A stretch of DNA of 64,000 nt from Candidatus Micrarchaeota archaeon (GTDB lineage Archaea; Micrarchaeota; Micrarchaeia; CABMEP01). Shown here piece by piece: positions 6,904 through 62,517 of the stretch; within the stretch, counting starts at the first letter, position 1, and every line of letters begins with the position of its first letter. The stretch is taken from positions 2,507-66,506 of the forward strand of contig JAOAKO010000003.1 in NCBI GenBank assembly GCA_026413625.1, given 5' to 3'. A model generated the notes under the pieces. It was not told where the DNA came from. It did no database searches and worked only from the letters and a program-made list of their open reading frames with translations. Position numbers and translations under genes: made by a program.

Positions 6904-8853
6904 TTAAATGACTAAAAAAACCTCTTTAATCCCAGATATCTTCTTAATTTCATTCTTTATTTTCTCAATTTGTTCATTTGAATTATAGGCAAGTACCAGA
7001 TTTATTATAATTCTCTCATCTCTTGTTTCCCCTATATTTATCTTCTTTATTTCAATCTGGTGATTGATTAGTACTTTTATTAGATCAGAGAGCAGTTTTG
7101 GCCTGTCCTCGCTTACTAAATTAATTTTCTGCAAATAAACATTTGAGTGCCCTTCCCATTTTGCATTTATTTTTCTTTTAAATTCAGGTGTTTTTTCAAA
7201 AGTTTTACAGTTTAATCGGTGAATCGTATATCTCCCTTCTTTTGGAGGATAGGTTACAATCGCATCGTTTATTGTAGGATTGCAACATTTCGCAAGATTT
7301 ATGTTTGGCGAATTTATTTGCGCAATCAATTCTCCACCTTCCATTCTTGCTTTTTTTCCTTTTTCAGAAATTGCGGTTTCGAGTTCCTTAGCTCCGCTCT
7401 TTTTAGGACCCAAGAGATTCAAAGCCGCTCTTATTTTTGCTTTCGCTTTCGATGTCTTAACATTTCCAAGCCAATTAATGTTAACTCTCTGTTGTGGCGC
7501 AGTTATTACTTCGACTATGTCGCCATCGCTTAAAATATGGTTGAATGGAACTATCTTTCCATTTACCTTTATTTTGTCTGCATTTAGACCGATTGATGTA
7601 TGAAGCGCAAAAGCAAAATCAAGCGCCGTAGAACCGTTCGGCAATTCAATCATGTCTCCTTTAGGCGTAAATGCTACGACCCCTCTTTCAAAAAGTTCTA
7701 TTTTTACCCCGTCAATGTACTCTTTTTCCTCCGTTATCTGCTTTTGCCAGCTCAAAAGATTTTTCATCCATTCGATTTTTTTATCGAATTCCTCTTCTCC
7801 ATGTCCTTTATACTTCCAGTGCGCCGCTATACCCATCTCTGCAATCCTATCCATCTCTTCGGTTCTGATTTGAGCCTCTATATTATGTCCGTTTTCTGTA
7901 AGAAAGTTAATATGGATGGACTGATACATATTCGATTTGGGCGATGCGATATAATCGTCCAATGTTTCAGGTAATATCTTATAGTTTTCTCCGATTATTT
8001 CAAGTATCCTATAGCAGTCGCTAACGCGCTTAGTTATTATTCTTATTGCAAAAAGATCCATCAGTTTGTCAAATGTAAGTTCCTTTTTCTTCATTTTTCT
8101 GTATATTGAATAAATATGTTTTTCCCTGCTCTTTACAATCACGTCTATTCCTTTTGATTTGATTAAACTTTCTACTTCAGCCCTTATTCTATCCGTTTCC
8201 TTTTCTTTTCCCTTTCTTTTTTCTGCCAACGCTTCTTTTATCTTAGAGTAAGCATCCGGATCCATTACAGAAAGATAAAGATCTTCTAATTCGTTTTTTA
8301 TTTTAGTTATATTTAGCTTATGGGCAATCGGAACGTATATCTCCATCGTTTCTTCCGCCATTCTTTTTTGCTTGTGCTCAGGGAGGTAAGAAATTGTTCT
8401 CATGTTGTGCAATCTATCCGCTAGTTTAATTATTATAATTCTTACATCTTTGCTCAAGACGACAAGCATCTTTCTTATATTTTCTGCTTCCGCCTGTTCT
8501 AGTTTTAAAAACGGAATTTTTCCAAGTTTCGTAAGACCTTCTACTATTTTTGAGACGTGCTCTCCAAATTCTTTTTCTATGCTGCTAATTGGAACTCCGG
8601 CATCTCTGCATACATCGTGCAAAAGCGAGGCCTGTATAGAAACAGTGTCATTAAGATACTGCGAAACTATGTTAGCGACCTCTATACAGTGCATTATATA
8701 TGGTTCACCTGAAAGTCTGTACTGGTTTCTATGCGCCAATGCAGCAAATTCAACCGCTTTTCTGATTGCAGGTTTATCTACTCTGCTTCCGTTTCTTTCT
8801 ATATTCGCGATCAGATTCTCGAATGCGTTTTCGATCTCCTGGTCAAGCTGCAT
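6904..8853 (-). CDS. rel: bifunctional RelA/SpoT-homolog (p)ppGpp synthetase/hydrolase (long RSH)
   Basis: HD hydrolase domain: HRNQYRLSGEPYIMH..LLHDV. Synthetase domain: SREKHIYSIYRKM, YQSIHINF, EAQIRTEEMDRIAEMGIAAHWKYK. TGS domain: FTPKGDMIELPNGSTALDFAFALHTSIG. There is also a Cys-rich CC segment (CCNP..HRLNC) and a C-terminal ACT-like domain. Confidence 0.88.
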   Translation of the reverse strand: MQLDQEIENAFENLIANIERNGSRVDKPAIRKAVEFAALAHRNQYRLSGEPYIMHCIEVANIVSQYLNDTVSIQASLLHDVCRDAGVPISSIEKEFGEHVSKIVEGLTKLGKIPFLKLEQAEAENIRKMLVVLSKDVRIIIIKLADRLHNMRTISYLPEHKQKRMAEETMEIYVPIAHKLNITKIKNELEDLYLSVMDPDAYSKIKEALAEKRKGKEKETDRIRAEVESLIKSKGIDVIVKSREKHIYSIYRKMKKKELTFDKLMDLFAIRIITKRVSDCYRILEIIGENYKILPETLDDYIASPKSNMYQSIHINFLTENGHNIEAQIRTEEMDRIAEMGIAAHWKYKGHGEEEFDKKIEWMKNLLSWQKQITEEKEYIDGVKIELFERGVVAFTPKGDMIELPNGSTALDFAFALHTSIGLNADKIKVNGKIVPFNHILSDGDIVEVITAPQQRVNINWLGNVKTSKAKAKIRAALNLLGPKKSGAKELETAISEKGKKARMEGGELIAQINSPNINLAKCCNPTINDAIVTYPPKEGRYTIHRLNCKTFEKTPEFKRKINAKWEGHSNVYLQKINLVSEDRPKLLSDLIKVLINHQIEIKKINIGETRDERIIINLVLAYNSNEQIEKIKNEIKKISGIKEVFLVI

Positions 8854-15832: not shown

Positions 15833-16849
15833 ATGAACATGAACAAAGCAATCCTATTGTCTTTGGCATTAATAATAGGCATTGTATTTTTTTCTGGATG
15901 TACGTCCACGAAAAAATGCAATTTAGATTCTGATTGTGGTAGTTGGCAAATGTGCAATAATTCAAAATGCATCGCAGCACCGGGCTTTTGCGATTCTAAC
16001 AATGACTGTGCCTCACATGAGCAATGCAACGTTAAAACACACACATGCGTCGTAAGGACCGGAATGTGCAACGCCAACTCCGACTGTCCAGACTGGCAGG
16101 AATGTGATACAGCAACTCACGAATGTAAGGTCAAATTAGGATATTGCATAGATAGCACTTACTGTACTAAGGATTACGAAGTATGCGATTCAATGACCCA
16201 TCTCTGCATCCCTAAAGAAGGCAGGTGCAATAACGATTATGACTGCGAGGGATGGCAGCTCTGTAATACTACAACAAACATGTGCTATCCTAGAGAAGGA
16301 TATTGCTTCACAAGACTTGACTGTAACCTTTGGGAAGAATGCGATGAAAGAACTAATAAATGCAAAGTTAGGGAAGGTTACTGTGCAAACGATGGCAACT
16401 GTCAGAAATGGCAAATTTGCGATTTAACAACACATAGGTGCGAAGTAGCGCCAAAGTATTGTGAAAAGGATTCCCAATGTGAAAGCTGGCAATATTGTCA
16501 GGTTTCTTCACATCAGTGCGTTGCAAGAAAAGGGTACTGCAGTTCAACTTCTGACTGTGCAGGAGGATATTCGGGTTATGAGACATGCGATCCAGTAACC
16601 CATAAGTGTATTCTTGTAGCTGGAAGGTGTGCATCAGATTCCGACTGCAAGAGTTGGGAATATTGCGACGCAACTAATAAGGTATGCAAGGTTAAACCAG
16701 GTTACTGTAATACAAACAATGACTGTGCAAGATCAGAAGCTTGTGACGTATCAATACACAGATGCTATAACTTGTATTGCGTGACCGATGCTGATTGTGA
16801 TTCCGGATACAAGTGTTCATTTGTAACCAGGTCTTGCTATAAAATCTAA
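15833..16849 (+). CDS. secreted/lipobox cysteine-rich repeat protein (12 tandem 4-Cys modules)
   Basis: A signal peptide ends in the lipobox-like FFSGC. It is followed by 12 modules of ~26 aa with the pattern C-x5-C-x5-C-x6-C-x5-G-[YRMF], for example CNANSDCPDWQECDTATHECKVKLGY. Confidence 0.8.
   Translation: MNMNKAILLSLALIIGIVFFSGCTSTKKCNLDSDCGSWQMCNNSKCIAAPGFCDSNNDCASHEQCNVKTHTCVVRTGMCNANSDCPDWQECDTATHECKVKLGYCIDSTYCTKDYEVCDSMTHLCIPKEGRCNNDYDCEGWQLCNTTTNMCYPREGYCFTRLDCNLWEECDERTNKCKVREGYCANDGNCQKWQICDLTTHRCEVAPKYCEKDSQCESWQYCQVSSHQCVARKGYCSSTSDCAGGYSGYETCDPVTHKCILVAGRCASDSDCKSWEYCDATNKVCKVKPGYCNTNNDCARSEACDVSIHRCYNLYCVTDADCDSGYKCSFVTRSCYKI
15917..16846 (+). repeat. tandem coding repeat, period ~78 nt (26 codons), 12 copies, diverged
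   Basis: The repeat boundaries were read from the protein: each unit starts with Cys and ends at Gly-aromatic/basic. Copies are diverged at the nucleotide level. Confidence 0.75.
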
Positions 16850-17371: not shown

Positions 17372-18436
17372 CTATCCGCAGCTTCCACTTACGGTTCCAC
17401 TTTCGCTGCTTAATGCAGTATCACAGGAATTCGGCCTAGTTAAAAACGCAGAACAAATGGTTTGCTTGTATGCCTCTGGCGTCCTTCCACCCGAATACTC
17501 TACGTCATTTATAAATAGGGTAGGCGAGCCTTGAACGCCATATTTTTTGTTAAGCTCGTATTCCTGCTTTGCATATTCAATAGCGTTTTTATCATAGCAA
17601 TTCTTTACATATTCAACATCTATTCCTTTTGATTTTGCTATGCTCTCCCAGCAGCTATCTACATTTTGGTAGTTGCATGATAAACTAACCGCCTTAATGT
17701 ATTCCTTCCAAACAGAGTAGTCATATTTGTCTTTTATGCACATTTGCCTTATATTTTCATTCAGTTCTTGTATTCCGTGCATAGAGCAGTATGTCTTGTT
17801 TAAACAGTATTTATCCTCTTGCCCAGCATAGTATTGTGAAGGATATACAACAAAATGAAGCTCGAAATTAATCTTGTCACCAAGAATGTCTAAAACAGGC
17901 CACATTGCATTTTCTGCTTGCTGCCCGTATGGACAATAGCTCATCACGAATAACTTGACATTCGGTTTTTCCGTTTTGGGAATCTCTTCCGGTTGTGTCT
18001 GGATTTGTTGGTCAATTTGAGGAATGCTTTTGCTCATATTGTATAACGCACCGACCATCATAAACTGTCCGTCATTGGTTACATAAACTTCTCCTTCGCT
18101 TATTTTATTTCCATTTTGCATTATATCTATTTTTAGTATAGATATCCCGCTAACTTGCGTGATGTTTTTGACTGCTGCATTCGCATTATATGATTTGAGG
18201 AAATTTACGTTAAGATATTCTGTAACCTTGGCAGATATATCCGCCATGCTCATTTCAATCCCGTACTTTGGCTTTGACAGTGATAGGAACGGTAAATCCC
18301 ATGCGTTCATAAGCATGTAGCCAATCAATATATATCCAAAGACAATGCCAAAAATTCCTCCAACTATAAGACTTGTAATGATCAGTCTTCTTTTACTTGT
18401 TTTTTCAACATGTTCCCTTATTCTTGTAACAACCAT
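17372..18436 (-). CDS. membrane-anchored extracytoplasmic thioredoxin-fold protein (GILT/DsbA-like)
   Basis: It has an N-terminal TM anchor. VKLFVMSYCPYGQQAE occupies the CxxC position but reads C-P-Y-G. CSMHGIQELNENIRQMC resembles the GILT signature. The C-terminal GSPTLFINDVEYSGGRTPEAY resembles DsbA-like proteins. There are about 10 further Cys residues. Confidence 0.65.
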   Translation of the reverse strand: MVVTRIREHVEKTSKRRLIITSLIVGGIFGIVFGYILIGYMLMNAWDLPFLSLSKPKYGIEMSMADISAKVTEYLNVNFLKSYNANAAVKNITQVSGISILKIDIMQNGNKISEGEVYVTNDGQFMMVGALYNMSKSIPQIDQQIQTQPEEIPKTEKPNVKLFVMSYCPYGQQAENAMWPVLDILGDKINFELHFVVYPSQYYAGQEDKYCLNKTYCSMHGIQELNENIRQMCIKDKYDYSVWKEYIKAVSLSCNYQNVDSCWESIAKSKGIDVEYVKNCYDKNAIEYAKQEYELNKKYGVQGSPTLFINDVEYSGGRTPEAYKQTICSAFLTRPNSCDTALSSESGTVSGSCG

Positions 18437-18513: not shown

Positions 18514-19044
18514 ATGGGAAATTTCAGCAGTTCGATATGGTTGTATCTTTCTCTAATAACTGCATGGAATATACTAATCTTTATAACACCGCTCTTATCG
18601 ATTAAAGGTTTAGATAATTCAGTGTTGTTTAATCTATTTTCCGTTTTTTGCCACCAGATATTCGAAAGATCTTTATGTATGAATAAAGACATGGAAATAA
18701 GCAGCTGTTCGATAGATCAGGGCTATACCTATCAATTTCCAGTTTGCGCAAGAGATTTTGCGTTTTATTTCGCAATGCTTTTGGGAGGAATTTTTATTTT
18801 AGCTCTTGGTAAAGATAAAGATAGAGAGATCCCAAGCCTAATATTTCTTTTCATATTTGTTCTTCCAACTGCAATCGACGGTTTAACTCAGCTTTTCGGG
18901 ATTAGAGAAAGTAACAACCAGCTTAGAATTGCGACAGGATTTTTAGCTGGGATAATAGTTCCCTTCTATGTAATACCTATAATGAATAGGGTTTTTAATA
19001 AAGGTGCATATAATGCAAGAAAGAGATCGCGAATTAGATCTTAG
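18514..19044 (+). CDS. DUF2085-like membrane protein
   Basis: [12 protein letters not shown] matches the CHQxxxRS motif of the DUF2085 family as I recall it. There are 4-5 TM helices. Confidence 0.6.
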
Positions 19045-46628: not shown

Positions 46629-47849
46629 TTGTTAAACGTTCCAAAAAGAAGAAAAACATTTCAAGTTAGGGTTGGAGAAATTTACATCGGAAGCGAGCAT
46701 CCGATCGTAGTTCAGTCAATGACAAATACAAACACCGCAGATGTGGATGCAACAGTAAAGCAGATCATTGAATTGCACAATGCAGGCTCAGAAATAGTTA
46801 GATTCACTGTAAAGGACGAAGAAATGGCAAAGGCAGTTCCAGACATAAAGAAAAAACTTCTTGAACATGGTTGCAGCGTTCCATTGGTTGGAGATTTTCA
46901 TTTTAACGGAGACATTCTTCTTTCAAAATATCCTAAGATGGCAGATTCGCTTGACAAATGGAGGATCAATCCAGGAAATGCAGGAAGCGATGAAAGATTT
47001 AGAAATGTGATCAAGCTTGCAATAGACTATGGCAAGCCAGTAAGAATAGGAGTGAACGGAGGTTCTCTCGACCAAAAGCTTCTCGCTAGGATGATAGAAA
47101 AGGATTTAAAGAGGCCAAAGGAAAAACAACTTGGCGCGCATAGAGTTTTCCTTGATGCAATGGTAAAGAGCGCATTGACATCTGCGGAATCTGCAGTCGA
47201 TGTCGGAATGCCTGAAAACGCAATAATTCTTTCTGCGAAAGTTTCCAATGTCAGAGATCTGATTTATGTATACTCAACCCTTGCAAAGAAGTGCAAATTC
47301 CCTCTTCACTTGGGGCTTACAGAAGCAGGAGGGGGGTCAAAGGGAATTGTGGCATCTGCACAAGGGATAGGAATTTTGCTTAATCAGGGAATAGGTGACA
47401 CTATACGTGTATCCATTACTCCAAGGCCAGGTCAAAGCAGAACAGAGGAGGTTAGAGTTGCACAGGAGATACTTCAGACATTAGGGCTTCGTGCATTCTT
47501 TCCGATGGTTACAAGCTGTCCAGGATGCGGAAGAACAACAAGCACTGTTTTCCAAACCATCGCAGAGGAAATAAGCAAATATCTACAAGAGATGAGCCCG
47601 GTTTGGCGGGCACAAGGATACAAGGGATTTGAAAGCATGAAGGTTGCAGTAATGGGTTGCATTGTCAACGGTCCAGGAGAATCAAGAGAAGCAAACATAG
47701 GACTCAGCCTACCTGGCTCCGGAGAAACCCCTTCAGCTCCGGTTTTCGCAGACGGAAAGCAGATCGCAACCCTTACAGGGGACGCAAAGAAGATTTCAGA
47801 AGAGTATAAAAAACTGATTGAAGAATACGTGAAAAGCCACTATAAGTAA
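46629..47849 (+). CDS. ispG: 4-hydroxy-3-methylbut-2-enyl diphosphate synthase IspG (GcpE)
   Basis: [37 protein letters not shown] and INPGN are present. The Fe-S ligands are SCPGCGRT and GCIVNGPGE. The start is a TTG, with no in-frame ATG near the 5' end. Confidence 0.9.
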
Positions 47850-50943: not shown

Positions 50944-51816
50944 ATGGAGATACTTATTGCTGAACCCAAGGGTTTTTGTTTTGGCGTAAAAAGATCAATA
51001 GATATGGTTGAAAAGGCGCTTAAAGAAGGAAAGAAAAATATTCAAATATTTGGGCCGATTGTCCATAACCCTCAGCAGATAAAGCTTCTTGAGGAAAAAG
51101 GAGTAAAAATGGTTAATTCAATTGATGAGATTCAGCCCGGAACTGTATTCGTAAGGGCGCACGGCGTATCCCCAGAAGTCTTTAGGAAGCTTAAAGAGAA
51201 GGGAGTGGTAGATATAATAGACGCAACGTGCCCATTTGTAAAGGTTGAGCAAGAATATGCAAAGAAGCTTGCAGAAGAAGGCTACCAGGTAATAATCATT
51301 GGAGAGAAAAACCATCCAGAAGCGTTAGGAGCACAGGGATATGCACCAGGTTCAATAATAATCGGAAGTGTGGAGGAAGCAAGGGCACTGAAAGAAGTCC
51401 CTAAAATCGGCGCGGTAGTTCAGACAACTCTAGAGCCAGAGGCAGTTGATGATATAGTGGCGGAACTTTATCACAAGGCAAAGGAGGTAAGGGTGTTCAA
51501 TACAATCTGCCAATCAACAAAAATGAGGCAGCCTGCAGCGAAGAAAGTAGCAGAGCAGGTTGATCTTATGATAGTTGTAGGGGGCAAGAACAGCGGAAAT
51601 ACGAGAAGGCTTGCAGAGGTGTGCAGCAGAATAAAGCCAACATATCATATAGAAACAGCTGCAGAACTAAAGAAAGAGTGGTTTGAAGGAATGAAAAAGG
51701 TAGGGATAAGCGCAGGGGCTTCAACACCTGAATTCATAATAGACGAAGTAATAGAGGCCATTAAGAAAATGGATGGGAGCTCAAAGAAAACAAGCAAAAA
51801 GAAAAGTGAAAAATAA
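50944..51816 (+). CDS. ispH: 4-hydroxy-3-methylbut-2-enyl diphosphate reductase IspH (LytB)
   Basis: PKGFCFGVKRSIDMVEKAL, GPIVHNPQ, DATCPFV, NTICQSTKMRQ and VVGGKNSGNTRRL are present. All three Cys ligands are there. Confidence 0.9.
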   Translation: MEILIAEPKGFCFGVKRSIDMVEKALKEGKKNIQIFGPIVHNPQQIKLLEEKGVKMVNSIDEIQPGTVFVRAHGVSPEVFRKLKEKGVVDIIDATCPFVKVEQEYAKKLAEEGYQVIIIGEKNHPEALGAQGYAPGSIIIGSVEEARALKEVPKIGAVVQTTLEPEAVDDIVAELYHKAKEVRVFNTICQSTKMRQPAAKKVAEQVDLMIVVGGKNSGNTRRLAEVCSRIKPTYHIETAAELKKEWFEGMKKVGISAGASTPEFIIDEVIEAIKKMDGSSKKTSKKKSEK

Positions 51817-52699: not shown

Positions 52700-53656
52700 T
52701 TAATCTTTAATTCCCTCTGGGGTTACCTTAAAGACGCATTCTCCTTCCGGCATGTTTGGAGAATCAATCAGTCTCGCTATTCTTTTCTCTTCTTTTCCTC
52801 TTCTTACATAAACACGATAAGTGCTTTGATGCGCAAGCACGTGACCTCCAATTGGAGTTGTTGGGTCGCCGAATAAAATCGCAGGATTGTCCATTACCTG
52901 GTTCGTAATATATACGGCTACATTGTAGGTATCAGCAAGCCTTTGAAGCGCACGTATGTGCCTATTTAATTTCTGCTGTCTTTCCCCAAGTGCCCCCCTA
53001 CCAACATAATCCGATCTAAATTGAGAAGTTAGTGAATCTACAATTATCAGTTTTATATTTTCCTTTTTTATTATCTCATCAGCCTTTTCAATCAATAAAA
53101 TCTGGTGGTCTGAGTTCATAGCTCTTGCAACATGAATATTCTTCAGAACCTGGTCTGGATCCATACCTTGGGCCTCTGCGATTTGTCTTATTCTTTCCGG
53201 CCTGAACGTTGCCTCGGAATCAATGAACAAAACCTTTCCTCCTAGGCCTCCTTGTCCCTCAGGCTTTTGAACGTTAACTGCAAGCTGGAATCCCACTTGA
53301 GTTTTTCCTGAACCGAATTTTCCGAAGAACTCAGTTATTGCCTGTGTTTCTACCCCTCCGCCAAGCAATTCATCAAGCTCTTTTGATCCGGTGCTAATCT
53401 TTGCTATTTGTTTTCTTCTTTCGTAAACCTGATCCCCAGTTTCAAAACCTATTTCAGTTGATTTCTTTGCCGCCTCAATTGCTTTTTTTGCATTGTCAAC
53501 GCTTATATCGCCTATTTCTGCAAGTTCATGGGGTGATGCAGTAGCAATCTTTTCAATAGTATCATATCCCTCGCTTCTAAGCTTTTCAGCGGTAGCAGGG
53601 CCGATGCCAGGAAGATCCTCAAGCTCTCTTACGTACTCTGTTTTTTCTTTTGCCAT
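52700..53656 (-). CDS. radA: DNA repair and recombination protein RadA
   Basis: The N-terminal HhH is [15 protein letters not shown]. Walker A is GKFGSGKTQ and Walker B is LIIVDS. Confidence 0.93.
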
Positions 53657-53865: not shown

Positions 53866-54825
53866 TCATTCTGCGAATTCCAGAATTTTATTGAGTGATT
53901 CTTCAGGCGCTTCTATCGTATTTAGGAACAATACATCACATTTCTTCAATAATCTCATATATGCTTCTCTTCTTACCCTCATTTTCCAATCGTTATTTTG
54001 AAGCCAATGAGGATTAAAGAAATCGTTTCTTAACAGGTGTTTCAGCGCCTCTTCAGGCCCCACTTTCTGAGTTATTTCTTTTCCTTTTTCCCTTCTGAGT
54101 ATTACAAATTTTGCTATGTCAGCGGCGTCTGTTATTTTTTCTTTTCCAACTGCTTTCGCAAGATTTATAATCGCTCTTCCTTTATTATCAACTTTAGCAT
54201 ATTTCATTACATCTTTGTATTCTTTCCAACTCTGACTCAAATCCGTTCTGATATACGTATTTTTTTCGCTTCTATATCCGGTAACAGTGCTGTTTATAAA
54301 TTTAAAGTAAAACCAGTCATCAGCAACGATCTTTGTATTGCTCTTTGTAAGGAGTCCGTAGCTTAAAGTTGTCTTGCCCGCTCCTGAAGGGCCGATTATG
54401 CAGGTGCCGTTTCCATTTACATTAAGCAGGGCTGCATGCGCAGAAAAGATATTATGGTTATCTTCCAATACGTCACCCATCAAAGCAAGCGCAACCGATT
54501 TTAGCCATCCGTAGTAATTGTTGTTTTTGAAAAACGCAGTTCTGGATTGCGGGTCATATAAAACAGTTGGATCACCTTTCGCATCCGAACCGGATTCTAT
54601 TGAAAACAATTTGGCATGCGATCTTATGTTCTCGTCAATAAAAAACCAGTTTTCATCCCACTGGTCTTCCCATTCTTCACTGTCGGAATATAAATGTAAG
54701 CATCCGCCACTGATATTCGCCTTTCTTTCAAAAATTATAGATTGCAGGTATTTTTGATAAATCCTTTCCTTTTCCACAATAGATATGAGTTTTTTCTTAT
54801 ATTTTGTTTTGCTCTTAATTTGCAT
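53866..54825 (-). CDS. HPr-kinase-like (PEPCK-type) P-loop protein
   Basis: HAALLNVNGNGTCIIGPSGAGKTTLSYGLL..KIVADDWF parallels the HprK C-terminal domain pattern H-G-x-l-x(5)-G-x-l-i-x-G-x-S-G-x-G-K-S...DD. The start is the ATG at 54825, or possibly 54885. Confidence 0.6.
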   Translation of the reverse strand: MQIKSKTKYKKKLISIVEKERIYQKYLQSIIFERKANISGGCLHLYSDSEEWEDQWDENWFFIDENIRSHAKLFSIESGSDAKGDPTVLYDPQSRTAFFKNNNYYGWLKSVALALMGDVLEDNHNIFSAHAALLNVNGNGTCIIGPSGAGKTTLSYGLLTKSNTKIVADDWFYFKFINSTVTGYRSEKNTYIRTDLSQSWKEYKDVMKYAKVDNKGRAIINLAKAVGKEKITDAADIAKFVILRREKGKEITQKVGPEEALKHLLRNDFFNPHWLQNNDWKMRVRREAYMRLLKKCDVLFLNTIEAPEESLNKILEFAE

Positions 54826-54944
54826 AATTATGGTTGGAAAGCAATATTTATAATATTTACACGTGTATATAAAGATATCAAGCATGCTAGCAAATCTAGT
54901 TAGTCTGGCATGTACTAATAAGCATTAAAATAAGGTGAGATAAT

Positions 54945-55301
54945 ATGAAGAAATTAGGAGTGTTAATGGCTTTATTCCTTTTAGGAAGCTTGATTTTTGC
55001 AGAAACAGGATCAGCATCGGAAGCAGGTACGAATATTAAAAAAGTTCTTAGCGCAATATGTAATTTGTCTGCCGGTTTATTGGGTCCAATCGCATTTGTT
55101 TTATTTGCGCTTGCAGGAGTTGTTTATGCAGGCAGCCAATTCTTTGGTGCTGAGGCAAGGGCAACTGGCTCAAAATGGGCAATGACAATGATTACTGGAG
55201 CAATAGTGGCGTTCTTGCTTTGGATAATTGGGCCGATGATAATATCTGAATTAGGCGGCGGTACGTATCGTATCGGGACAAGCGCTTGCACTGGTTTCTA
55301 A
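54945..55301 (+). CDS. VirB2/TrbC-like pilin candidate, paralog 1
   Basis: 118 aa. Signal peptide MKKLGVLMALFLLGSLIFA, then a Cys (SAIC), hydrophobic helix 1 (LLGPIAFVLFALAGVVYAG), basic loop FFGAEARATGSKW, hydrophobic helix 2 (AMTMITGAIVAFLLWIIGPMII) and a C-terminal Cys (SACTGF). A strong SD (AAGGTGA) precedes the gene. Confidence 0.6.
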   Translation: MKKLGVLMALFLLGSLIFAETGSASEAGTNIKKVLSAICNLSAGLLGPIAFVLFALAGVVYAGSQFFGAEARATGSKWAMTMITGAIVAFLLWIIGPMIISELGGGTYRIGTSACTGF

Positions 55302-55343
55302 TATGAATGGATTTTCCATTCTTTTTCTTTTTAGTTGATTTTT

Positions 55344-55748
55344 ATGGTGCGCGCAAGGACTAGAATCAGACAGCAATCACGGAAAAATACAAGCAGTGGT
55401 TCTTTGCTAGTCTTTGCTCTTGCTTTTCTTTTAACAATTTCATTATCATTTTCGCAAACATCAGGTTCTACCCAGGCATCTGAGAAGCTAAAGACAACCC
55501 TTTGCAGTCTTTATAAGGATCTGAATTCAGTGATTCCTACAGTTGCGTTCGTACTATTTGTATTGGCAGGAGTATCATACGCAGGAGGCCAGTTTTTTGG
55601 AGCGGAAACGAGGGCAAAAGCAATTTCTTGGTCTATGTCCATGGTTACCGGTGCAGTAGTTGGATTATTGATAGTGCAGGTTGCTTCTGTTCTTATTTCG
55701 AATCTTGCAGGCTACAAGTTAAGCGAAGTCTGTCGAGAGATAAAGTAG
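55344..55748 (+). CDS. VirB2/TrbC-like pilin candidate, paralog 2
   Basis: 134 aa. The long Arg-rich signal peptide is MVRARTRIRQQSRKNTSSGSLLVFALAFLLTISLSFS. It is followed by TTLC, helix 1 IPTVAFVLFVLAGVSYAG, loop FFGAETRAKAISW, helix 2 SMSMVTGAVVGLLIVQVASVLI and a C-terminal EVCREIK. Confidence 0.6.
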   Translation: MVRARTRIRQQSRKNTSSGSLLVFALAFLLTISLSFSQTSGSTQASEKLKTTLCSLYKDLNSVIPTVAFVLFVLAGVSYAGGQFFGAETRAKAISWSMSMVTGAVVGLLIVQVASVLISNLAGYKLSEVCREIK

Positions 55749-55830
55749 AGTTTTCAATTCAATCTATTACTTTTTAAATCTTTTTAACAAATTGAATGTA
55801 TTCTATATAGATTATACAATAGGTGAAGAG

Positions 55831-56181
55831 ATGAGAAAATTAACAATATTATTCGTTATTTCAGCCATGTCATTAGTATTTGCACAAACTACTGAGGTAA
55901 CACAAAGATTGATAGTTGGTTTGAACAATATTTGCGTTCAGTTAACACAGATTCTTCCGATCATTGCAATAGTGCTATTTGTACTTGCAGCAGTGGTCTA
56001 CGGAATCGGCCATGTATTTGGAGCAGAAATGAAATCAAAGGCAACAGGATGGGCCACGTCTATGGTAGTTGGAGCAGTAATCTCCCTTTTGATCTTTCTT
56101 TTAGCAAGGCCAATTTTAGGGGTTTTCGTTCCAGAAATCTCAACTTCTGATTTCTGCACTGAAAGATTCTATCCATACTGA
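55831..56181 (+). CDS. VirB2/TrbC-like pilin candidate, paralog 3
   Basis: 116 aa from the ATG at 55831, which has the SD AGGTGA upstream. Signal peptide MRKLTILFVISAMSLVFA, then LNNIC, helix 1 LPIIAIVLFVLAAVVYGIG, loop FGAEMKSKATGW, helix 2 ATSMVVGAVISLLIFLLARPIL and a C-terminal DFCTERF. Confidence 0.6.
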   Translation: MRKLTILFVISAMSLVFAQTTEVTQRLIVGLNNICVQLTQILPIIAIVLFVLAAVVYGIGHVFGAEMKSKATGWATSMVVGAVISLLIFLLARPILGVFVPEISTSDFCTERFYPY

Positions 56182-56263
56182 TTTTTTCTTTTTATTAATA
56201 ACTTCTTTCTTTTCTTCTATGCAATAACATAGTATTTAAAAACTTTTTAAAGAAATAAGTATC

Positions 56264-57085
56264 ATGGCACTCGGATTTACTACTAGACAAATGGCATACG
56301 CAGCTATAGGCGTTTCAATATTGGTTTTCCTAGTAATGGCAACGCTTCCAGGGGGAAGTACGCTTCAATTTGTTTTGGCAGGTTTGTCTCTTTTTACAGC
56401 AGTTCTCTCATTTTTGATTTGGAAGTATGGATATTGGGCAATACCATACATCACGAAACGTCTGAATATCATTGAAGTTCATGACGGACAATGGGAAACC
56501 ACTCCCGCACAGGATGCGATAGTTAAAAAGATAGGAGACGAGTATTACGCATCTGTATTTTTGCACATAAAGATGTACAAGTCAACTACAGAAAGGTCTC
56601 AAGAAGAAAACATGGTTTTCATAGACGCATTTGAAAGGGCAATAGCAAATATCAAATATCCAGTTAAGGTTTCAACTCTTCTATATGCAAAGGATATAGC
56701 CAAATACAGGGAGGATGTCGAAACAAAGAAATACGAGGCCCAGTTAAAGCTCCAAAGGGAGAGAGAGAAATCAGAGCCTGATGTATTGGCATTGGATAGA
56801 TTGGAAAAAGAAGTGGCCATGTATGAGGCTGAATTAAACAGAATAATGTCTGGAGAAAGGCCTATGGGACTAATTTCATATGCAATGACAACCGGAGTGG
56901 GCGTTACAAAGGATGCAGCCGTAGCGGTTGCAAAGAACCAGGCGGCAGAAATAAAGACTCTCATAGCAAACGCGCTTAATGTTGAAGTCTCATATCTATA
57001 CGGAGAAGATATGATGAAGTGCTATGATCTTGAACACATGGTGCCCCCAACAGTTAAGGCATTAAAGGAATTTGTGGAAGCATGA
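56264..57085 (+). CDS. membrane protein: N-terminal TM hairpin (VirB3-like) plus soluble domain (possible detached VirB4 N-domain)
   Basis: 273 aa. There are two TM helices in the first ~55 aa (AAIGVSILVFLVMATL and FVLAGLSLFTAVLSFLIW), then a ~215-aa soluble domain. The stop lies 15 nt before the ATPase gene. The assignment rests on architecture only. Confidence 0.45.
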   Translation: MALGFTTRQMAYAAIGVSILVFLVMATLPGGSTLQFVLAGLSLFTAVLSFLIWKYGYWAIPYITKRLNIIEVHDGQWETTPAQDAIVKKIGDEYYASVFLHIKMYKSTTERSQEENMVFIDAFERAIANIKYPVKVSTLLYAKDIAKYREDVETKKYEAQLKLQREREKSEPDVLALDRLEKEVAMYEAELNRIMSGERPMGLISYAMTTGVGVTKDAAVAVAKNQAAEIKTLIANALNVEVSYLYGEDMMKCYDLEHMVPPTVKALKEFVEA

Positions 57086-57100
57086 AGGCACATTTAGATA

Positions 57101-58693
57101 ATGTCCTTATCGGGTGAATTGATGGGAGATTTGAAGATACACGATGTCCAAAATACAGACATAGGAAGAAGAGCGATTATCGTGAGCCCCCCCGAACCTC
57201 CCGCAGAATATCTAATGGGAGACCCAAAAGATTCTATTTATTTGGGCAGAACGACAGTTTTTAACGTTCCGTTTTATTGGAACTTTAGACGGCTTACAAA
57301 TCCTCACATAGCAATTACAGGTATAACTGGTTCTGGTAAATCTTACCTAATTAAAACCTTTCTTCTTAGGGCCGCATTGGTATGGAATGCTAATGCGATT
57401 ATTATCGACTGGGCAGGAGAGTATAAGGCGTGGGTTAAGCAAGTAAACGGAATTGTTGTTGCATTGGGAAGAGGATCTTTTCTAAATCTTCTTGATTTAG
57501 GCGGGATGAAGCCATCCGATAGGATAAAACAGGTCATAAGGTCTCTTGAAATACTCACAGATATAGGCCAGTATCCAGAACAGAGAAGGCTAATAGAGGA
57601 AGCAATTGAAAAGGCTTATCTTAATGCAGGATTCAAGCTCTCCGAAAAGGATCAAAAAGACGCGTTAGGAAACCCACTAAGACCACCAACTCTTAAGGAT
57701 GTCCAGAAGAATCTCCAAGAGATGCTTGAGGCAGGAACATATGAGTTTCCAGCCGAGCTTCAGAATGCAATTTATAAAATAAAGAAATTTACACTAGAAG
57801 GTGACGATTATTTTGCAGAACAGTCGACTATAGATTTAGACAAACTCCTCACTTCAGGTCTGGTTGCAATTGATCTTTCCGGATTGCCGGATGAAACCTT
57901 CCGCGCATTGGCTGCCCTCACAATTTTGCAGTTCATTAAGGAAAAGATGAGAATGGAAGGGTGGAAGCCTGAAAAAGGGATAAAACTTCTGGTCGTTTTG
58001 GATGAAGCTTGGAAGATTTCAAAGGATGAAAACAGCGATGCGGTTATGATCGTAAGAGAGGGAAGAAAGTACCAATTTGCATTGATTGTCGCATCTCAAA
58101 CTCCAACAGATATAAGCGAGGTTATTTTTAGCAATGTTGGAACAGTGATAATGCTTAGACTAAAATTTGAAAAGTATCTTGACTACTTGCAAAATTCATT
58201 AAGATTCAGTAATTACATACGCCAGCAAATACTTGGCTTTGGGGTTGGCCAGGCAGCGATATCAATGGCATACGAGCAAACAACTCCATTTAGCGAGACC
58301 TTTATCTTAAAAAGAATTGACGGTGAAGAACCGATAGTGGATTACTTTATCGATATTTTATCCGTGCTAACAGAAGCACAGAGAAGGGATGAGACCATGC
58401 CGAAGAGTTTTTCAATGGAGAGAACAGCTTTCAAGAAGAGATTAAGAGAGATGGGGCTTAATGATCAAAGGGTTGAAGAACTGTCAACATTAATAGAGAA
58501 GAAAGCAAAGCACATCGACGCAATCGAATTTGTAATAGAATTAGAAAGGAGCGGTGTGAGCAGGAAAACGATAACGATGTTTTTCAGAGAACTTGGAATT
58601 GACGACAGCACAATTATCAATATCTTTACCAGAGCAGATCAGAAAAAGACAGGCGCAGGAGAAAGAGAGCTAACGCAAGTTACACTTGAATAG
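57101..58693 (+). CDS. VirB4/TraC-like (HerA-FtsK superfamily) P-loop ATPase
   Basis: Walker A is HIAITGITGSGKSYL and Walker B is KLLVVLDEAWKI (the DEAW form is typical of VirB4/TrbE). Also present are REGRKYQFALIVASQTPTDI and the NPLD-like FLNLLDL. There are no TM helices. Confidence 0.7.
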   Translation: MSLSGELMGDLKIHDVQNTDIGRRAIIVSPPEPPAEYLMGDPKDSIYLGRTTVFNVPFYWNFRRLTNPHIAITGITGSGKSYLIKTFLLRAALVWNANAIIIDWAGEYKAWVKQVNGIVVALGRGSFLNLLDLGGMKPSDRIKQVIRSLEILTDIGQYPEQRRLIEEAIEKAYLNAGFKLSEKDQKDALGNPLRPPTLKDVQKNLQEMLEAGTYEFPAELQNAIYKIKKFTLEGDDYFAEQSTIDLDKLLTSGLVAIDLSGLPDETFRALAALTILQFIKEKMRMEGWKPEKGIKLLVVLDEAWKISKDENSDAVMIVREGRKYQFALIVASQTPTDISEVIFSNVGTVIMLRLKFEKYLDYLQNSLRFSNYIRQQILGFGVGQAAISMAYEQTTPFSETFILKRIDGEEPIVDYFIDILSVLTEAQRRDETMPKSFSMERTAFKKRLREMGLNDQRVEELSTLIEKKAKHIDAIEFVIELERSGVSRKTITMFFRELGIDDSTIINIFTRADQKKTGAGERELTQVTLE

Positions 58694-59144
58694 AATTCTA
58701 AATTATTGCATATCGGGTGATTTTGTGGCAAAAATTTGTGTGATTGGAAAAGAAGAGATCAAAGGATCAAATTACAAACCGATTAGAGATGATGTTGTAA
58801 TCTCATCAATAAGGAAGATAAAACGATTCTTTAAGGTCGCTGCTGAAAATGAGCTTGTAGTTTGCGATAAACATTTAGAGGAAGCAGTGAAAAGGAGAAA
58901 AGAATTCGAATCCTCAATAGTAAAGATAGTAGCGGTAACCGCAGTAATCGCAGTAATTGCAATAATTCTTGCTTTGTTAAACAACTCGCTTAATTTTATA
59001 CCTGCAACAATTTCAATGGTAATATTATTGTTCATTCTCTTACTTTTTGTATCGCTTTTTAGATATTTTCCTTCAGTAGATCATAACGTAGAACAGAAAA
59101 AAGTCATTACTTCAAAACGAAGACAGATTACTAAGAGGAGATAA
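58686..59144 (+). CDS. small membrane protein with two C-terminal TM helices (orphan)
   Basis: The N-terminal ~75 aa are soluble. The TM helices are IVAVTAVIAVIAIILALL and ISMVILLFILLLFVSLF, followed by a basic tail. The start is the TTG at 58686, overlapping the ATPase stop, or the GTG at 58725. Confidence 0.55.
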   Translation: MNRILNYCISGDFVAKICVIGKEEIKGSNYKPIRDDVVISSIRKIKRFFKVAAENELVVCDKHLEEAVKRRKEFESSIVKIVAVTAVIAVIAIILALLNNSLNFIPATISMVILLFILLLFVSLFRYFPSVDHNVEQKKVITSKRRQITKRR

Positions 59145-59145
59145 A

Positions 59146-59889
59146 ATGGCATCGTTAGACAATAAAGATCAAGTATCTTCTAAGGAACCTTTTGTAGAAG
59201 GGTTTAAAATAGATGCAAAAATGCTTAAAGGATCACAAGAAGTTATAGATGCGCTTTCTCCACTTCAGTTTTTAGATCTCGTAGAAACTAAAAGCGGAAT
59301 AGTTGCAATAAATATTGAGAGAAGAGACATTCAGAAGAACCCGTACCTCTTTTCTATAATATATCTCAATCCAGACAGCATAGAGATAATTTACAGTTAT
59401 AATCCGGATGAAAGTCCTAAGAAAAGAAGACTGGAAATACTGAGATATTTTCTTAACATTTTAACGCTGCTTGAAAATGTATATTTCATAAATCATAAAC
59501 AGCTTTATCAGATTGTTGATAATTTCATGTCAAGGCTTTTGGAATATACATCCTCAACTTATGAAGAGTTATTCTCAAAATACGACTCTGTCAGAGAAGA
59601 ATGCGAAAGAATAAAGAAGCAGCTTTCAGAGACAATAGCAGCAAACGAAAACCTCAGAAAATCAAATATAGAGCTTAAGGAAAAGCAGAACGAGTTGCTT
59701 TTGAGAATAAAAGAGCTTGAATCTGTCTCTGACGAAATTCTTATTTCAAGAATCCAAACTTGGCTTGATGAGCATAATTATGAAATAAATATCTCTGACT
59801 TTGCTAGGATAAATAAAGTTAGCGAGCAGAGGGTCGAAGAAATACTTAATAAAATGGTAAGAGAAGGGTACCTAGCTCAAAGAGAATGA
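59146..59889 (+). CDS. cytoplasmic coiled-coil protein with C-terminal winged-helix-like domain (orphan)
   Basis: Central heptad-rich region: REECERIKKQLSETIAANENLRKSNIELKEKQNELLLRIKELE. C-terminus: ISDFARINKVSEQRVEEILNKMVREGYLAQ. It starts 1 nt after the upstream stop, with the SD AAGAGGAG. Confidence 0.6.
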   Translation: MASLDNKDQVSSKEPFVEGFKIDAKMLKGSQEVIDALSPLQFLDLVETKSGIVAINIERRDIQKNPYLFSIIYLNPDSIEIIYSYNPDESPKKRRLEILRYFLNILTLLENVYFINHKQLYQIVDNFMSRLLEYTSSTYEELFSKYDSVREECERIKKQLSETIAANENLRKSNIELKEKQNELLLRIKELESVSDEILISRIQTWLDEHNYEINISDFARINKVSEQRVEEILNKMVREGYLAQRE

Positions 59890-59910
59890 AATATATCTAA
59901 GAGGAAGATT

Positions 59911-62517
59911 ATGCCTGAAGAGACAAAAACAAAAAAGTTTGCACGGGTTCATAGGGCGCTATATAAATTCAATATACAACGCCTATTCATACCAATTAAA
60001 AGATATGCAAAAAAAGCAACAGAGATTACTCCGCAAGTTTTAATCAATTCTATTTCGTCTCTCTTTCAACCTAAGAAAAAAGAAGAAACGAAAGTAATAA
60101 AGCCAGCAAGGCGCATTACAACCCCATCTCCACTGCTTAACGTGATTATTATAGTTTTTCTTTGTCTGATCGCAATAGGCGCGTATTTCATCTTTGTTTA
60201 TTATACTACACCCGGTGTACCTGAAGTTCCGATTGCAGTAGAGCTTTCAAAGCCAAATATAGTGGTCAATGTATTAAGTTCAGGTTATCTAGATTCATCT
60301 TCTGATCAGACACGCTGGTTTGTGCTTCTTGATGTTTTAGCTCAAAATACAACCGAACTAAATTTCGACTTCGTGGTTCAACAGCAATTCATTCCAAATG
60401 ATGTCTACATATTGAAGGTCCCAAACTATCAATTTGCTTCAAACTATCCTCAGTTTTATTCACGGCTAAAAAGTTCGCTTGAAAGGAAAGGTTTGTTTCT
60501 GTCAGAAATTACAATTGAAGAAATGGTTTCTTTACCTAAAACCAGAAAAATCATATTAATTGTTCCTTCGGGTTATTTACCTGCTGTTTTTATAGGTGAA
60601 GAATATAAAAATTTTACATTGAAAAAATTTGTTGAAAACGGAAATGTATTGATATACATAGGATACAAACCAACTGACAGCGTTTTATATAGCTCGCTGC
60701 CAAATCCCCAGCCGATTTCTCAAGAAAAGATTGCAGATTGGCAGCTTTCATTTGATTCCGCCTCAGGCCAGCCACAATTTTTCTCATTCAAAAACCCACT
60801 ATACTCCATCAAATCAATAGGGACAGCCGCTACGCGCCCAATAATTAGTGGAGACCCTGGAGGTTTTTCAATTAAATGGGAAGGAGATGGTTTCGCATAT
60901 TTTATACCTACAACAATTGATTTCTGGTGGCAATTCTCAGGAGAAAAATCTGCCGATGAATTGGCTGACGCAATTATCAATGCAAGATGGGGTTACGGTC
61001 TTTCAAGAATACAAAAAACGCTGCAGGTTAACGGGTCTTTCAAAGGTCAGATTATACTGTTTACCTCACCATTCAGATTTCCAGACGGCACAAGAGTCAC
61101 CCGTTCTTATGGAAAACTATATCTACAGGGAATAAATAAAGTTAATAATGTCACTGAGGCGGTAGGGTCGTCTATATCTGTAAGATTCCCAATGCGGCCG
61201 AAAGGATTGTTGATGCACGATGATTCTGCAATCAATTCGTTCATATCCGGGAATCCATTAGAAATAAAATATTCTTTAAATGAGAATACAACCGAATTGA
61301 AGCAACTCTATTTGTCCGCGATAAACCAAAACAATGAAGAGGTATTATTTATTCCAATTACTGCAGCGCCAGTCCCGCTAAAGCTCTCAAATGCAGTTTA
61401 TAGATTTGACAATCAGCTTAAGAGCGGAGAATATATTTTAAGGATAAGCGACGATAAAAGAAACACTTTTGCCCAATCATATCTTTCAATGCTTTCCTTT
61501 AAGATCGAACCTTATATAACTGATTTCTTGCAGGGAAATTTCATATTCAACGTTTACATTCTGCCAAGTGGAGAGGAGTATACTTCAGTATTAAAAAACA
61601 TAGAGGTGTCTTTAGATGGGGGAGATGTTAAAAGATTAGATGCGACAAAGGGCAGAATCATATACAATGCTACCCCCATAACAGCTCCAGGAATGTATAC
61701 ATTTACATTCAAATTTGGTCCGGATGTAATAAGTGTTCCAGTCCAGTATACTCGACCTGTTTCAATGTTTGAGAGGCCAGAGAATATAGCGATGGGAATA
61801 ATTGCAATTCTTTTATTTGCAATCGGATATTTGATCTCAAGGCCAGAAGCGGTTAAATATGCAATAGACGTTCCAGATTTCCCACCATTGCAATCTATCG
61901 CAGTACCAATAAAGCGCGAGAAAATTCTTGAAATATTTGATCAAGTTAATGCTGACCTGAAATGGAAAAACACTCCATTAACAATAAATGATCTAAAGAT
62001 GGGATTTAGAAAGATAATGTTTAGAGGGAAGCCTTTGCTTGTTGGGGATTATAATCTAGAGATGATTTTAGATAAGCTTAAGGAAGAGGGATATGTAGTC
62101 CAATCGATGGAATATTACGGGCTTAAGCGCTGGGAAAAGGAGACAAGGAAATCCATCTATTATCTTGCTTTGGTAAGGGCTTTGCGAGACATATTTGTTA
62201 CAGAAGGAATTCCATTTTTGCCGTTTGGACAAAGAGGGGATGCAGACACCGTACTTAGTTATGGCGGAGAAAATGTGTATGTCCATATATACGAGTCAGA
62301 TGCGGTAATAAAGAAAGCAATATACACCTCTTCAATAGGCAGAACTATCATTGTTTTTGAGAATGAATCAGTAATGAACGATTTTCTGTCAAGAATACAC
62401 ACTCCGGATCGCCAGAACGTGGTATTTAAACTTTTATTGGACAATGGAAAAATAAGCGTAGCACCTATTAATAAATTTATGAGTGTGCTGCAGAAAAAAG
62501 TAGTGTTTACATACTAG
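59911..62517 (+). CDS. 868-aa bitopic membrane protein: basic N-tail, TM, ~470-aa extracytoplasmic domain, TM, ~220-aa cytoplasmic domain (orphan)
   Basis: TM1 is LLNVIIIVFLCLIAIGAYFIFVYY and TM2 is IAMGIIAILLFAIGYLI. No catalytic motif is recognised. The C-terminal domain contains a wHTH-like ILDKLKEEGYVVQ. Confidence 0.65.
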   Translation: MPEETKTKKFARVHRALYKFNIQRLFIPIKRYAKKATEITPQVLINSISSLFQPKKKEETKVIKPARRITTPSPLLNVIIIVFLCLIAIGAYFIFVYYTTPGVPEVPIAVELSKPNIVVNVLSSGYLDSSSDQTRWFVLLDVLAQNTTELNFDFVVQQQFIPNDVYILKVPNYQFASNYPQFYSRLKSSLERKGLFLSEITIEEMVSLPKTRKIILIVPSGYLPAVFIGEEYKNFTLKKFVENGNVLIYIGYKPTDSVLYSSLPNPQPISQEKIADWQLSFDSASGQPQFFSFKNPLYSIKSIGTAATRPIISGDPGGFSIKWEGDGFAYFIPTTIDFWWQFSGEKSADELADAIINARWGYGLSRIQKTLQVNGSFKGQIILFTSPFRFPDGTRVTRSYGKLYLQGINKVNNVTEAVGSSISVRFPMRPKGLLMHDDSAINSFISGNPLEIKYSLNENTTELKQLYLSAINQNNEEVLFIPITAAPVPLKLSNAVYRFDNQLKSGEYILRISDDKRNTFAQSYLSMLSFKIEPYITDFLQGNFIFNVYILPSGEEYTSVLKNIEVSLDGGDVKRLDATKGRIIYNATPITAPGMYTFTFKFGPDVISVPVQYTRPVSMFERPENIAMGIIAILLFAIGYLISRPEAVKYAIDVPDFPPLQSIAVPIKREKILEIFDQVNADLKWKNTPLTINDLKMGFRKIMFRGKPLLVGDYNLEMILDKLKEEGYVVQSMEYYGLKRWEKETRKSIYYLALVRALRDIFVTEGIPFLPFGQRGDADTVLSYGGENVYVHIYESDAVIKKAIYTSSIGRTIIVFENESVMNDFLSRIHTPDRQNVVFKLLLDNGKISVAPINKFMSVLQKKVVFTY

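Follow-up and report, generated by a model that had tools for sequence, protein, structure and literature searches.

Recent cryo-electron microscopy (cryo-EM) has revealed that some bacterial mating pili use peptide-cyclized subunits, although opinions still differ on what such closure is for. TrbC of RP4 and TrhA of R27 are both cyclic (PMC13434634), and in each of them the two ends of one VirB2-fold subunit lie within bonding distance (PMC13434634, PMC11722321). Here we describe three consecutive open reading frames (ORFs) on a 64,000-nt chromosomal fragment from a metagenome-assembled genome of Candidatus Micrarchaeota, a DPANN archaeon. This whole stretch of analysed DNA is referred to as the window. 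The ORFs, identical to the NCBI proteins N3G74_01215, N3G74_01220 and N3G74_01225, are predicted to encode VirB2/TrbC-type pilins. Each product carries one cysteine (Cys) in its first long helix (helix 1) and another near the end of its C-terminal tail, and these two residues may well close into an intramolecular disulfide staple. Within the literature searched, pilins with such a Cys pair, which occur throughout the clade, had not been described as a form of this known family.

The cysteine pair and its conservation

The three paralogues share 31–39% mutual identity. Their hydropathy profile agrees with the AlphaFold2 secondary structure in giving a signal peptide, two hydrophobic helices, a short charged loop and a mature protein of approximately 100 residues. 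The fold predicted by AlphaFold2 from 50- and 65-sequence alignments consists of a signal-peptide helix, two long helices and a short tail, with a mean predicted local distance difference test (pLDDT) score of 77–81. In paralogue 1, the signal peptide ends in LIFA↓E, helix 1 spans approximately residues 24–63, the loop reads FGAEARATG, and helix 2 covers approximately residues 69–104, followed by the C-terminal tail. A conserved (V/I/S)-F-(A/S)↓(Q/E) motif after the first hydrophobic stretch satisfies the −3/−1 rule for signal peptidase I. Paralogues 2 and 3 probably start at the ATG codons given in Table 1, in agreement with the NCBI models; GGTGA precedes that of paralogue 3. The Cys residues of these two paralogues are numbered from the upstream TTG starts.

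A first-pass annotation of this DNA had counted exactly two Cys per paralogue, which the translations and a codon check bear out; the signal peptides contain none. It placed the C-terminal Cys 4–8 residues from the end of the protein and the other one before helix 1. The former does lie close to the C-terminus, though it is followed by 3, 4 and 7 residues in the three paralogues. The latter indeed precedes the hydrophobic stretch, by approximately 5–8 residues, but it is located inside the predicted helix 1. Relative to paralogues 1 and 3, this helix-1 Cys is displaced outward by one turn in paralogue 2. Both Cys had also been assigned to the extracytoplasmic side, and this assignment holds independently of signal-peptide cleavage, because an uncleaved signal peptide merely adds an N-in/C-out helix. 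The same membrane face for the two residues is supported by the hydropathy profile with its short basic loop, and by natural homologues with an extracellular domain at the N-terminus or a large C-terminal extension rich in Cys. The termini of VirB2 pilins likewise face outward (PMC9905601). A role of the helix-1 Cys as a lipobox residue was considered and rejected, for it lies approximately 20 residues past the signal-peptidase I site and its −1 residue is I or L.

Homologues were collected by word-indexed searches with the three paralogues, which gave 82 proteins, and by an exhaustive profile search of 1.84 billion 50%-identity representatives, which gave 606 matches at E ≤ 1e-3 (357 at E ≤ 1e-10), the best 150 of which were analysed. 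The Gly in the invariant loop motif FGAE served as the reference for numbering Cys positions. At least one Cys was present in both regions of 179 of the 180 complete single-domain homologues, and 150 of the 180 had exactly one helix-1 and one tail Cys (1+1). Since the background Cys content of the window is approximately 1%, retention of the pair at this level is far beyond chance. Among 249 pilin domains, 162 were 1+1, 18 were 2+2 and 17 had neither, and a Cys without its partner was observed in only two, both of them truncated sequences. The helix-1 Cys occupies position −32 or −29, one helical turn apart, and the tail Cys lies 0–10 residues from the C-terminus. In the 50- and 65-sequence alignments, whose mean column identity is 35–39%, nine columns are invariant, and of these only the tail Cys lies outside the hairpin core; the remainder of the tail is paralogue-specific. 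A scan of GTDB species genomes identified 40 loci, nearly all from Micrarchaeota, with two of Iainarchaeota type and one from Aenigmatarchaeota. Almost every pilin ORF in these loci, usually arrayed in twos or threes, has the Cys pair.

The two sites also change together. An extra helix-1 Cys was cross-tabulated against an extra tail Cys (2 × 2 counts of 18/7/4/151), which yielded an odds ratio of 97 and a Fisher p of 1.2e-15, uncorrected for phylogeny. The multi-Cys arrangements are diverse, comprising CxxxC with a terminal CxC, CxC with Cx4C or Cx8C, Cx5C with Cx8C or Cx5C, Cx6C with Cx3C, and one 3+3 case. Several 2+2 pilins resemble 1+1 pilins more closely than they do the remaining 2+2 types, an indication that matched Cys pairs were probably gained independently approximately 4–6 times. 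The main helix-1 positions, −36, −32, −29/−28 and −24, form an i, i+4, i+7, i+11 stripe with a few variants (−35, −31) off it; a tail lying along that side of helix 1 would be expected to give such a stripe. Of 213 single-domain proteins, 192 have an even number of Cys downstream of the signal peptide, members with long Cys-rich C-terminal extensions among them. Loss is joint as well: the one Cys-free complete single-domain pilin lacks both residues, as does an ORF at 569–919 of locus L040, and fused proteins of approximately 520–570 residues, composed of two tandem pilin-like domains and a polytopic membrane region, are devoid of Cys at both corresponding positions. The comparison among homologues that the first-pass annotation had proposed, for invariance of the two Cys and for their co-variation, thus gave a strong result on both counts, with co-variation in gain and in loss. 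Conservation, coupling, joint absence and even counts together read, at the level of sequence, as the signature of a disulfide.

Several unusual architectures were found in the family. Two proteins, P0083 (1071 residues) and P0090 (632 residues), have an N-terminal extracellular-looking domain followed by 4–7 tandem pilin-like units with a period of approximately 95 residues, and P0096 (342 residues) starts within a pilin unit. All three are single ORFs whose units each keep the helix-1 and tail Cys, and they may be "polypilin" precursors or membrane arrays. The Cys-pair-free fusions (P0108, P0118, P0131, P0184, P0195, L038 5845–7410 and L039 5584–7113) consist of a signal peptide, two pilin-like domains and a polytopic membrane half. 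They recall CedA, whose N-terminus resembles CedA1, so that a VirB6/CedA-like role may be guessed at. Pfam gave no match for these fusions, and the genes around the L038 fusion were uninformative. Finally, P0164 (Candidatus Anstonella stagnisolia VVB58988.1, 429 residues) and L033 2324–4105 join a pilin domain to a very Cys-rich C-terminal extension (54 and approximately 48 Cys, respectively), and may represent tip or adhesin-type pilins.

The candidate staple and competing explanations

We favour, with some reserve, the reading that the helix-1 Cys and the tail Cys form an intramolecular disulfide staple. A Sec-type signal peptide would insert the precursor and probably be cut at the conserved motif described above, leaving a helical hairpin whose short basic loop is inside and whose C-terminal tail and first part of helix 1 lie outside. 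On this outer face, the two Cys would be oxidized to a disulfide. The bond, most likely within one subunit, would hold the variable 12–17-residue tail against one side of helix 1, locking the hairpin and stabilizing the subunit in the membrane pool as well as in the filament. The geometry would permit such a bond, as the helix-1 Cys is approximately 5 residues above the hydrophobic stretch and 11–14 tail residues follow helix 2. In some relatives, two or even three staples of this kind seem to be present. We infer the formation of the bond, its placement within one subunit and its stabilizing effect on the pilin.

Several observations weigh against this reading. The tail was placed with low confidence in both AlphaFold2 runs (pLDDT 58–67), and the tail Cys is not displaced in step with the helix-1 Cys, so that the geometry is not fixed. 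A 2+1 arrangement occurs in 7 of the 180 simple pilins and an odd Cys total in 21 of the 213 proteins, while the Fisher test for coupling makes no correction for shared ancestry. No canonical CxxC oxidase and no DsbB/VKOR protein was detected among the window proteins examined. Moreover, all of the coupling evidence is matched equally by disulfides between subunits, in which the helix-1 Cys of one pilin would bond to the tail Cys of its neighbour to give a cross-linked filament. Conservation and parity fit this arrangement just as well, the long tail is not confidently docked by AlphaFold2 onto its own subunit, and in the tandem "polypilin" ORFs only approximately 20 residues separate a tail Cys from the helix-1 Cys of the next unit. 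We nevertheless regard it as unlikely. Monomers wait in the membrane before assembly, where an intramolecular bond is the simpler protection of two thiols; the two ends of a single subunit lie side by side in the cyclic TrbC and TrhA (PMC13434634, PMC11722321); and covalent cross-links would make retraction or disassembly impossible. That last property could be turned into a function, with a covalently cross-linked, non-retractable VirB2-type filament providing this host-dependent archaeon with a permanent connection to its host, as a bridge or for the passage of DNA. This extension seems to us quite unlikely, but, if true, such a filament would be the first covalently held conjugative-type pilus.

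The Cys might instead be conserved yet reduced, for instance where the surroundings are anoxic and reducing, and serve for packing or bind a metal or other ligand where subunits meet. In favour of this explanation, low-oxygen sediments and springs are the source of many Micrarchaeota, a minority of homologues have odd Cys counts, and no canonical CxxC oxidase was found in the window. The window protein that the first-pass annotation had described as an exported GILT/DsbA-like oxidoreductase keeps part of that description: it matches GILT and has a membrane segment (Table 1), but its active-site position reads CPYG, a single Cys in place of CxxC, and so speaks only weakly for a dedicated oxidase. 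It is possible that this protein helps extracytoplasmic thiol chemistry. On the other side, the matched 1+1, 2+2 and 3+3 patterns with joint absence are typical of disulfide partners and not of packing residues, and a standard metal site would need more than two thiols per subunit. It is also hard to account for the exported window proteins with 8 and 49 Cys unless they have extracytoplasmic disulfides. Permanently reduced Cys are accordingly judged improbable, and the staple is retained as the favoured reading.

These exported Cys-rich neighbours have even counts: the DUF5885 protein contains 49 Cys, one of which is a likely lipobox Cys, and a 945-residue surface protein contains 8. The ATPase of the pilin locus has no Cys and RadA has one. 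A window-wide comparison of Cys in exported and cytoplasmic proteins was discarded as too noisy, since ribosomal and translation proteins were put in the wrong class by the hydropathy classifier. The DUF5885 product is a lipoprotein-like exported protein whose Cys are regularly spaced at 6–7 residues in repeated modules of approximately 27 residues. The GILT-like gene is divergent from that of a DUF2085 membrane protein with four Cys, and the two products may form a thiol-redox pair.

Family identity and chromosomal setting

The Pfam families T4SS_pilin (PF18895) and TrbC/VirB2 (PF04956) match all three paralogues with E values of 1.5e-5 to 0.029, a little short of the gathering cut-offs; the matches at E 1.5e-5 to 1.5e-3 score 2–8 bits under them. 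Matches at E ≤ 1e-3 were obtained for 29 of 50 relatives with T4SS_pilin (best E 7.3e-9) and for 25 of 50 with TrbC (best E 3e-8), and precomputed Pfam pilin matches exist for many homologues. Paralogue 2 matches TrwL, the pilin of R388, in the PDB (8s6h, E 5.6e-4), as well as the NCBIfam model T4SS_pilin_TrwL (9.1e-5). A profile search of PDB sequences found TrwL only, at E 0.039, which is weaker than the single-sequence match. Foldseek comparison of the pilin model with the PDB gave generic helical hairpins only, none at E ≤ 0.001, which is uninformative for a two-helix protein. The assignment to VirB2-type pilins is based on the Pfam, NCBIfam and PDB matches in combination with the predicted fold and a neighbouring CedB/VirB4-type ATPase. 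One could suppose that the products are two-helix small membrane proteins of another function, in which the Cys pair serves that other role, and the sub-threshold Pfam scores, the generic Foldseek hairpins and the weak profile-level PDB match would all suit this idea. It is very improbable in our estimation, since independent models (Pfam TrbC, Pfam T4SS_pilin, NCBIfam TrwL and PDB TrwL) are concordant, and since the genes form tandem arrays beside a CedB/VirB4-type ATPase with conserved synteny, in the layout of the Ced/Ted systems and of Patescibacteria (PMC9905601, PMC12102498). When the family profile was run against the six-frame translation of the window, only these three pilins were found.

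Table 1. Positions of the pilin genes, their cysteine codons and other features of the window
Feature	Position	Strand	Remarks
Pilin paralogue 1	54945–55301	+	118 aa precursor; Pfam T4SS_pilin E 3.5e-5, TrbC E 3.7e-4
Paralogue 1 Cys	55059–55061; 55287–55289		C39 (SAIC-N), TGT; C115 (SAC-TGF), TGC
Pilin paralogue 2	55344–55748	+	134 aa from ATG; ORF opens at TTG 55335 (137 aa); Pfam TrbC E 1.5e-5
Paralogue 2 Cys	55503–55505; 55731–55733		C57 (TTLC-S); C133 (EVC-REIK)
Pilin paralogue 3	55831–56181	+	116 aa from ATG; ORF opens at TTG 55792 (129 aa)
Paralogue 3 Cys	55933–55935; 56155–56157		C48 (NNIC-V); C122 (DFC-TERFYPY)
273-aa protein	56264–57085	+	two N-terminal hydrophobic segments; always between pilins and ATPase
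CedB/VirB4-type ATPase	57101–58693	+	530 aa; HerA-FtsK superfamily; two genes downstream of the pilins
Three conserved downstream genes	58686–62517	+	152-aa membrane protein; 247-aa protein with weak EAP30-like match; 868-aa membrane protein
GILT/thioredoxin-fold protein	17372–18436	−	Pfam GILT 27.2 bits (cut-off 22.4); one predicted N-terminal membrane segment
DUF2085 membrane protein	18514–19044	+	four Cys
DUF5885 protein	15833–16849		lipoprotein-like, exported
RadA	52700–53656		intein-free
GcpE/IspG	46629–47849		full length, E 2.8e-116
LytB/IspH	50944–51816		full length, E 1.8e-96
RelA/SpoT-type protein	6904–8853	−	full length; HD, RelA_SpoT, TGS and ACT domains

The genes are ordered radA, an HPr-kinase-like gene, the three pilins, the 273-aa gene, the ATPase, the 152-aa, 247-aa and 868-aa genes, and a glycosyltransferase, and this order is kept in the loci of at least eight other Micrarchaeota species. 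The surroundings are of a housekeeping nature (radA, ispG/ispH, ribosomal proteins and eIF2-gamma), and tblastn against 72,556 plasmids gave no match. With flanking radA, ispH and glycosyltransferase genes, synteny across species and no plasmid match, the locus can be read from its sequence as a chromosomal, domesticated VirB2 + VirB4-type pilus system and not as a mobile element.

The ATPase matches DUF87, AAA_10 and the TraG P-loop in Pfam, and HerA and the VirB4-like 4ag5 in the PDB. Its best NCBIfam match is CedB (E 6.6e-24), followed by the CD1110 VirB4-like family (1.9e-20) and VirB4_CagE (2e-13), all of which are far under the family cut-offs. Against the CedB model it scores 84.5 bits, compared with an equivalog cut-off of 700, and VirB4-like conjugation ATPases score nearly equally. 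It covers only the C-terminal ATPase half of VirB4/TraC/CedB. The 273-aa protein has no family match in Pfam, the PDB or NCBIfam, and it may be the equivalent of VirB3 or of the VirB4 N-terminus. No peptidase-family match that could correspond to a TraF-type maturation peptidase was obtained among the locus genes from 53866 to 62517. A CedA/VirB6-like polytopic gene was not found in the window, either by the pilin profile on the six-frame translation or as a VirB6/TrbL match. Candidate fusions of this kind (P0108 type) occur in other Micrarchaeota and carry no annotation.

Relatives of the locus differ from it in some respects. Across the related species loci L002–L012 the ATPase is 84–97% identical, whereas identity drops to 47–82% for the paralogue-1 pilin. 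It is also well under the ATPase figure for the relatives collected by the word-indexed searches with paralogues 2 and 3, as would fit a faster evolution of surface-exposed subunits. A fourth pilin is present a few kilobases past the glycosyltransferase in relatives (L001 10001–10336; around position 6000 in L009–L014), and in the present contig it would fall just beyond the 3′ end of the window. Its helix motif is CxxxC in L001, L013 and L014, with a terminal CxC in L001 and L013 and a truncated sequence in L014, and a single pair is found in L009–L011. In L001, it adjoins a gene for more than 6000 residues. The radA gene is interrupted in two close relatives (L004 1525–4065 and L006 2211–4751) by an intein with a LAGLIDADG endonuclease, the gene product being 847 residues long. 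Elsewhere in the window, IspG and IspH represent the last two enzymes of the bacterial-type methylerythritol phosphate pathway for isoprenoids, which is unusual for an archaeon, and a RelA/SpoT-type protein is likewise encoded in this archaeal genome.

Comparison with known pili

The Micrarchaeota proteins share with VirB2/TrbC pilins such as TrwL a small precursor with a cleavable signal, two long hydrophobic helices, a short charged loop, a gene that adjoins a VirB4-type ATPase, and recognizable sequence matches. Compared with TrwL, the Micrarchaeota tail is approximately 16–24 residues longer in the alignment and ends in the invariant Cys, whose partner lies on helix 1. To our knowledge, no conserved extracytoplasmic Cys pair is known in characterized bacterial VirB2 pilins. 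Full-text literature searches likewise found no publication that describes VirB2-type pilins with a Cys pair or disulfide, whether from DPANN archaea or elsewhere. In the D-region of bacterial type IV pilins, a conserved C-terminal disulfide stabilizes the pilus subunit. Those pilins have an unrelated fold, another assembly machine and another class of signal peptide, so that they provide an analogy only.

The Ced/Ted DNA-import pili, with the pilins CedA1 and TedC, are similarly archaeal, chromosomal and domesticated VirB2 + VirB4-type systems, and TedC also has a cleavable signal peptide (PMC9905601). They differ in that the Micrarchaeota pilins have no detectable sequence similarity to CedA1 or TedC, and the paper on Ced/Ted pili never mentions cysteine or disulfide (PMC9905601). 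The VirB2 arrays of Patescibacteria (Candidate Phyla Radiation, CPR) are likewise composed of tandem, divergent genes (2–11) close to virB4 that match PF18895 and PF04956, and both kinds of array lack a relaxase and occur in ultra-small organisms dependent on a host, although the Patescibacteria belong to another domain of life (PMC12102498). The paper on these type IV secretion systems reports no pilin Cys pair (PMC12102498). The present locus defines a chromosomal pilus system that is conserved among Micrarchaeota and is of interest for how these organisms make contact with their hosts.

A comparison with cyclic pilins had been drawn in the first-pass annotation, which named RP4 TrbC and the Agrobacterium T-pilin as precedents. 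The former stands, while the T-pilin is acyclic in cryo-EM (PMC9905601, PMC11722321). In RP4 TrbC and R27 TrhA, as proposed here, a VirB2-fold subunit has its ends joined covalently, and in both cases this is proposed to add stability (PMC13434634, PMC11722321). The cyclic pilins are closed by a head-to-tail peptide bond after C-terminal trimming, for which RP4 uses the TraF peptidase, and nothing in the Micrarchaeota pilin sequence appears to argue for peptide cyclization. Their closure would be a disulfide from the C-terminal tail to an internal helix-1 residue. The head-to-tail-like ring originally imagined is not borne out, as a bond at approximately residue 20 of the mature pilin leaves approximately 19 N-terminal residues free, making it a lariat. 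The likeness to pilin cyclization is therefore one of analogy only: the staple would be a functional analogue of RP4 TrbC and R27 TrhA cyclization that differs both chemically and topologically. A clade-wide matched Cys pair, doubled or tripled in some lineages, suggests that joining the ends of the VirB2 fold was selected independently in Micrarchaeota by means of another chemistry.

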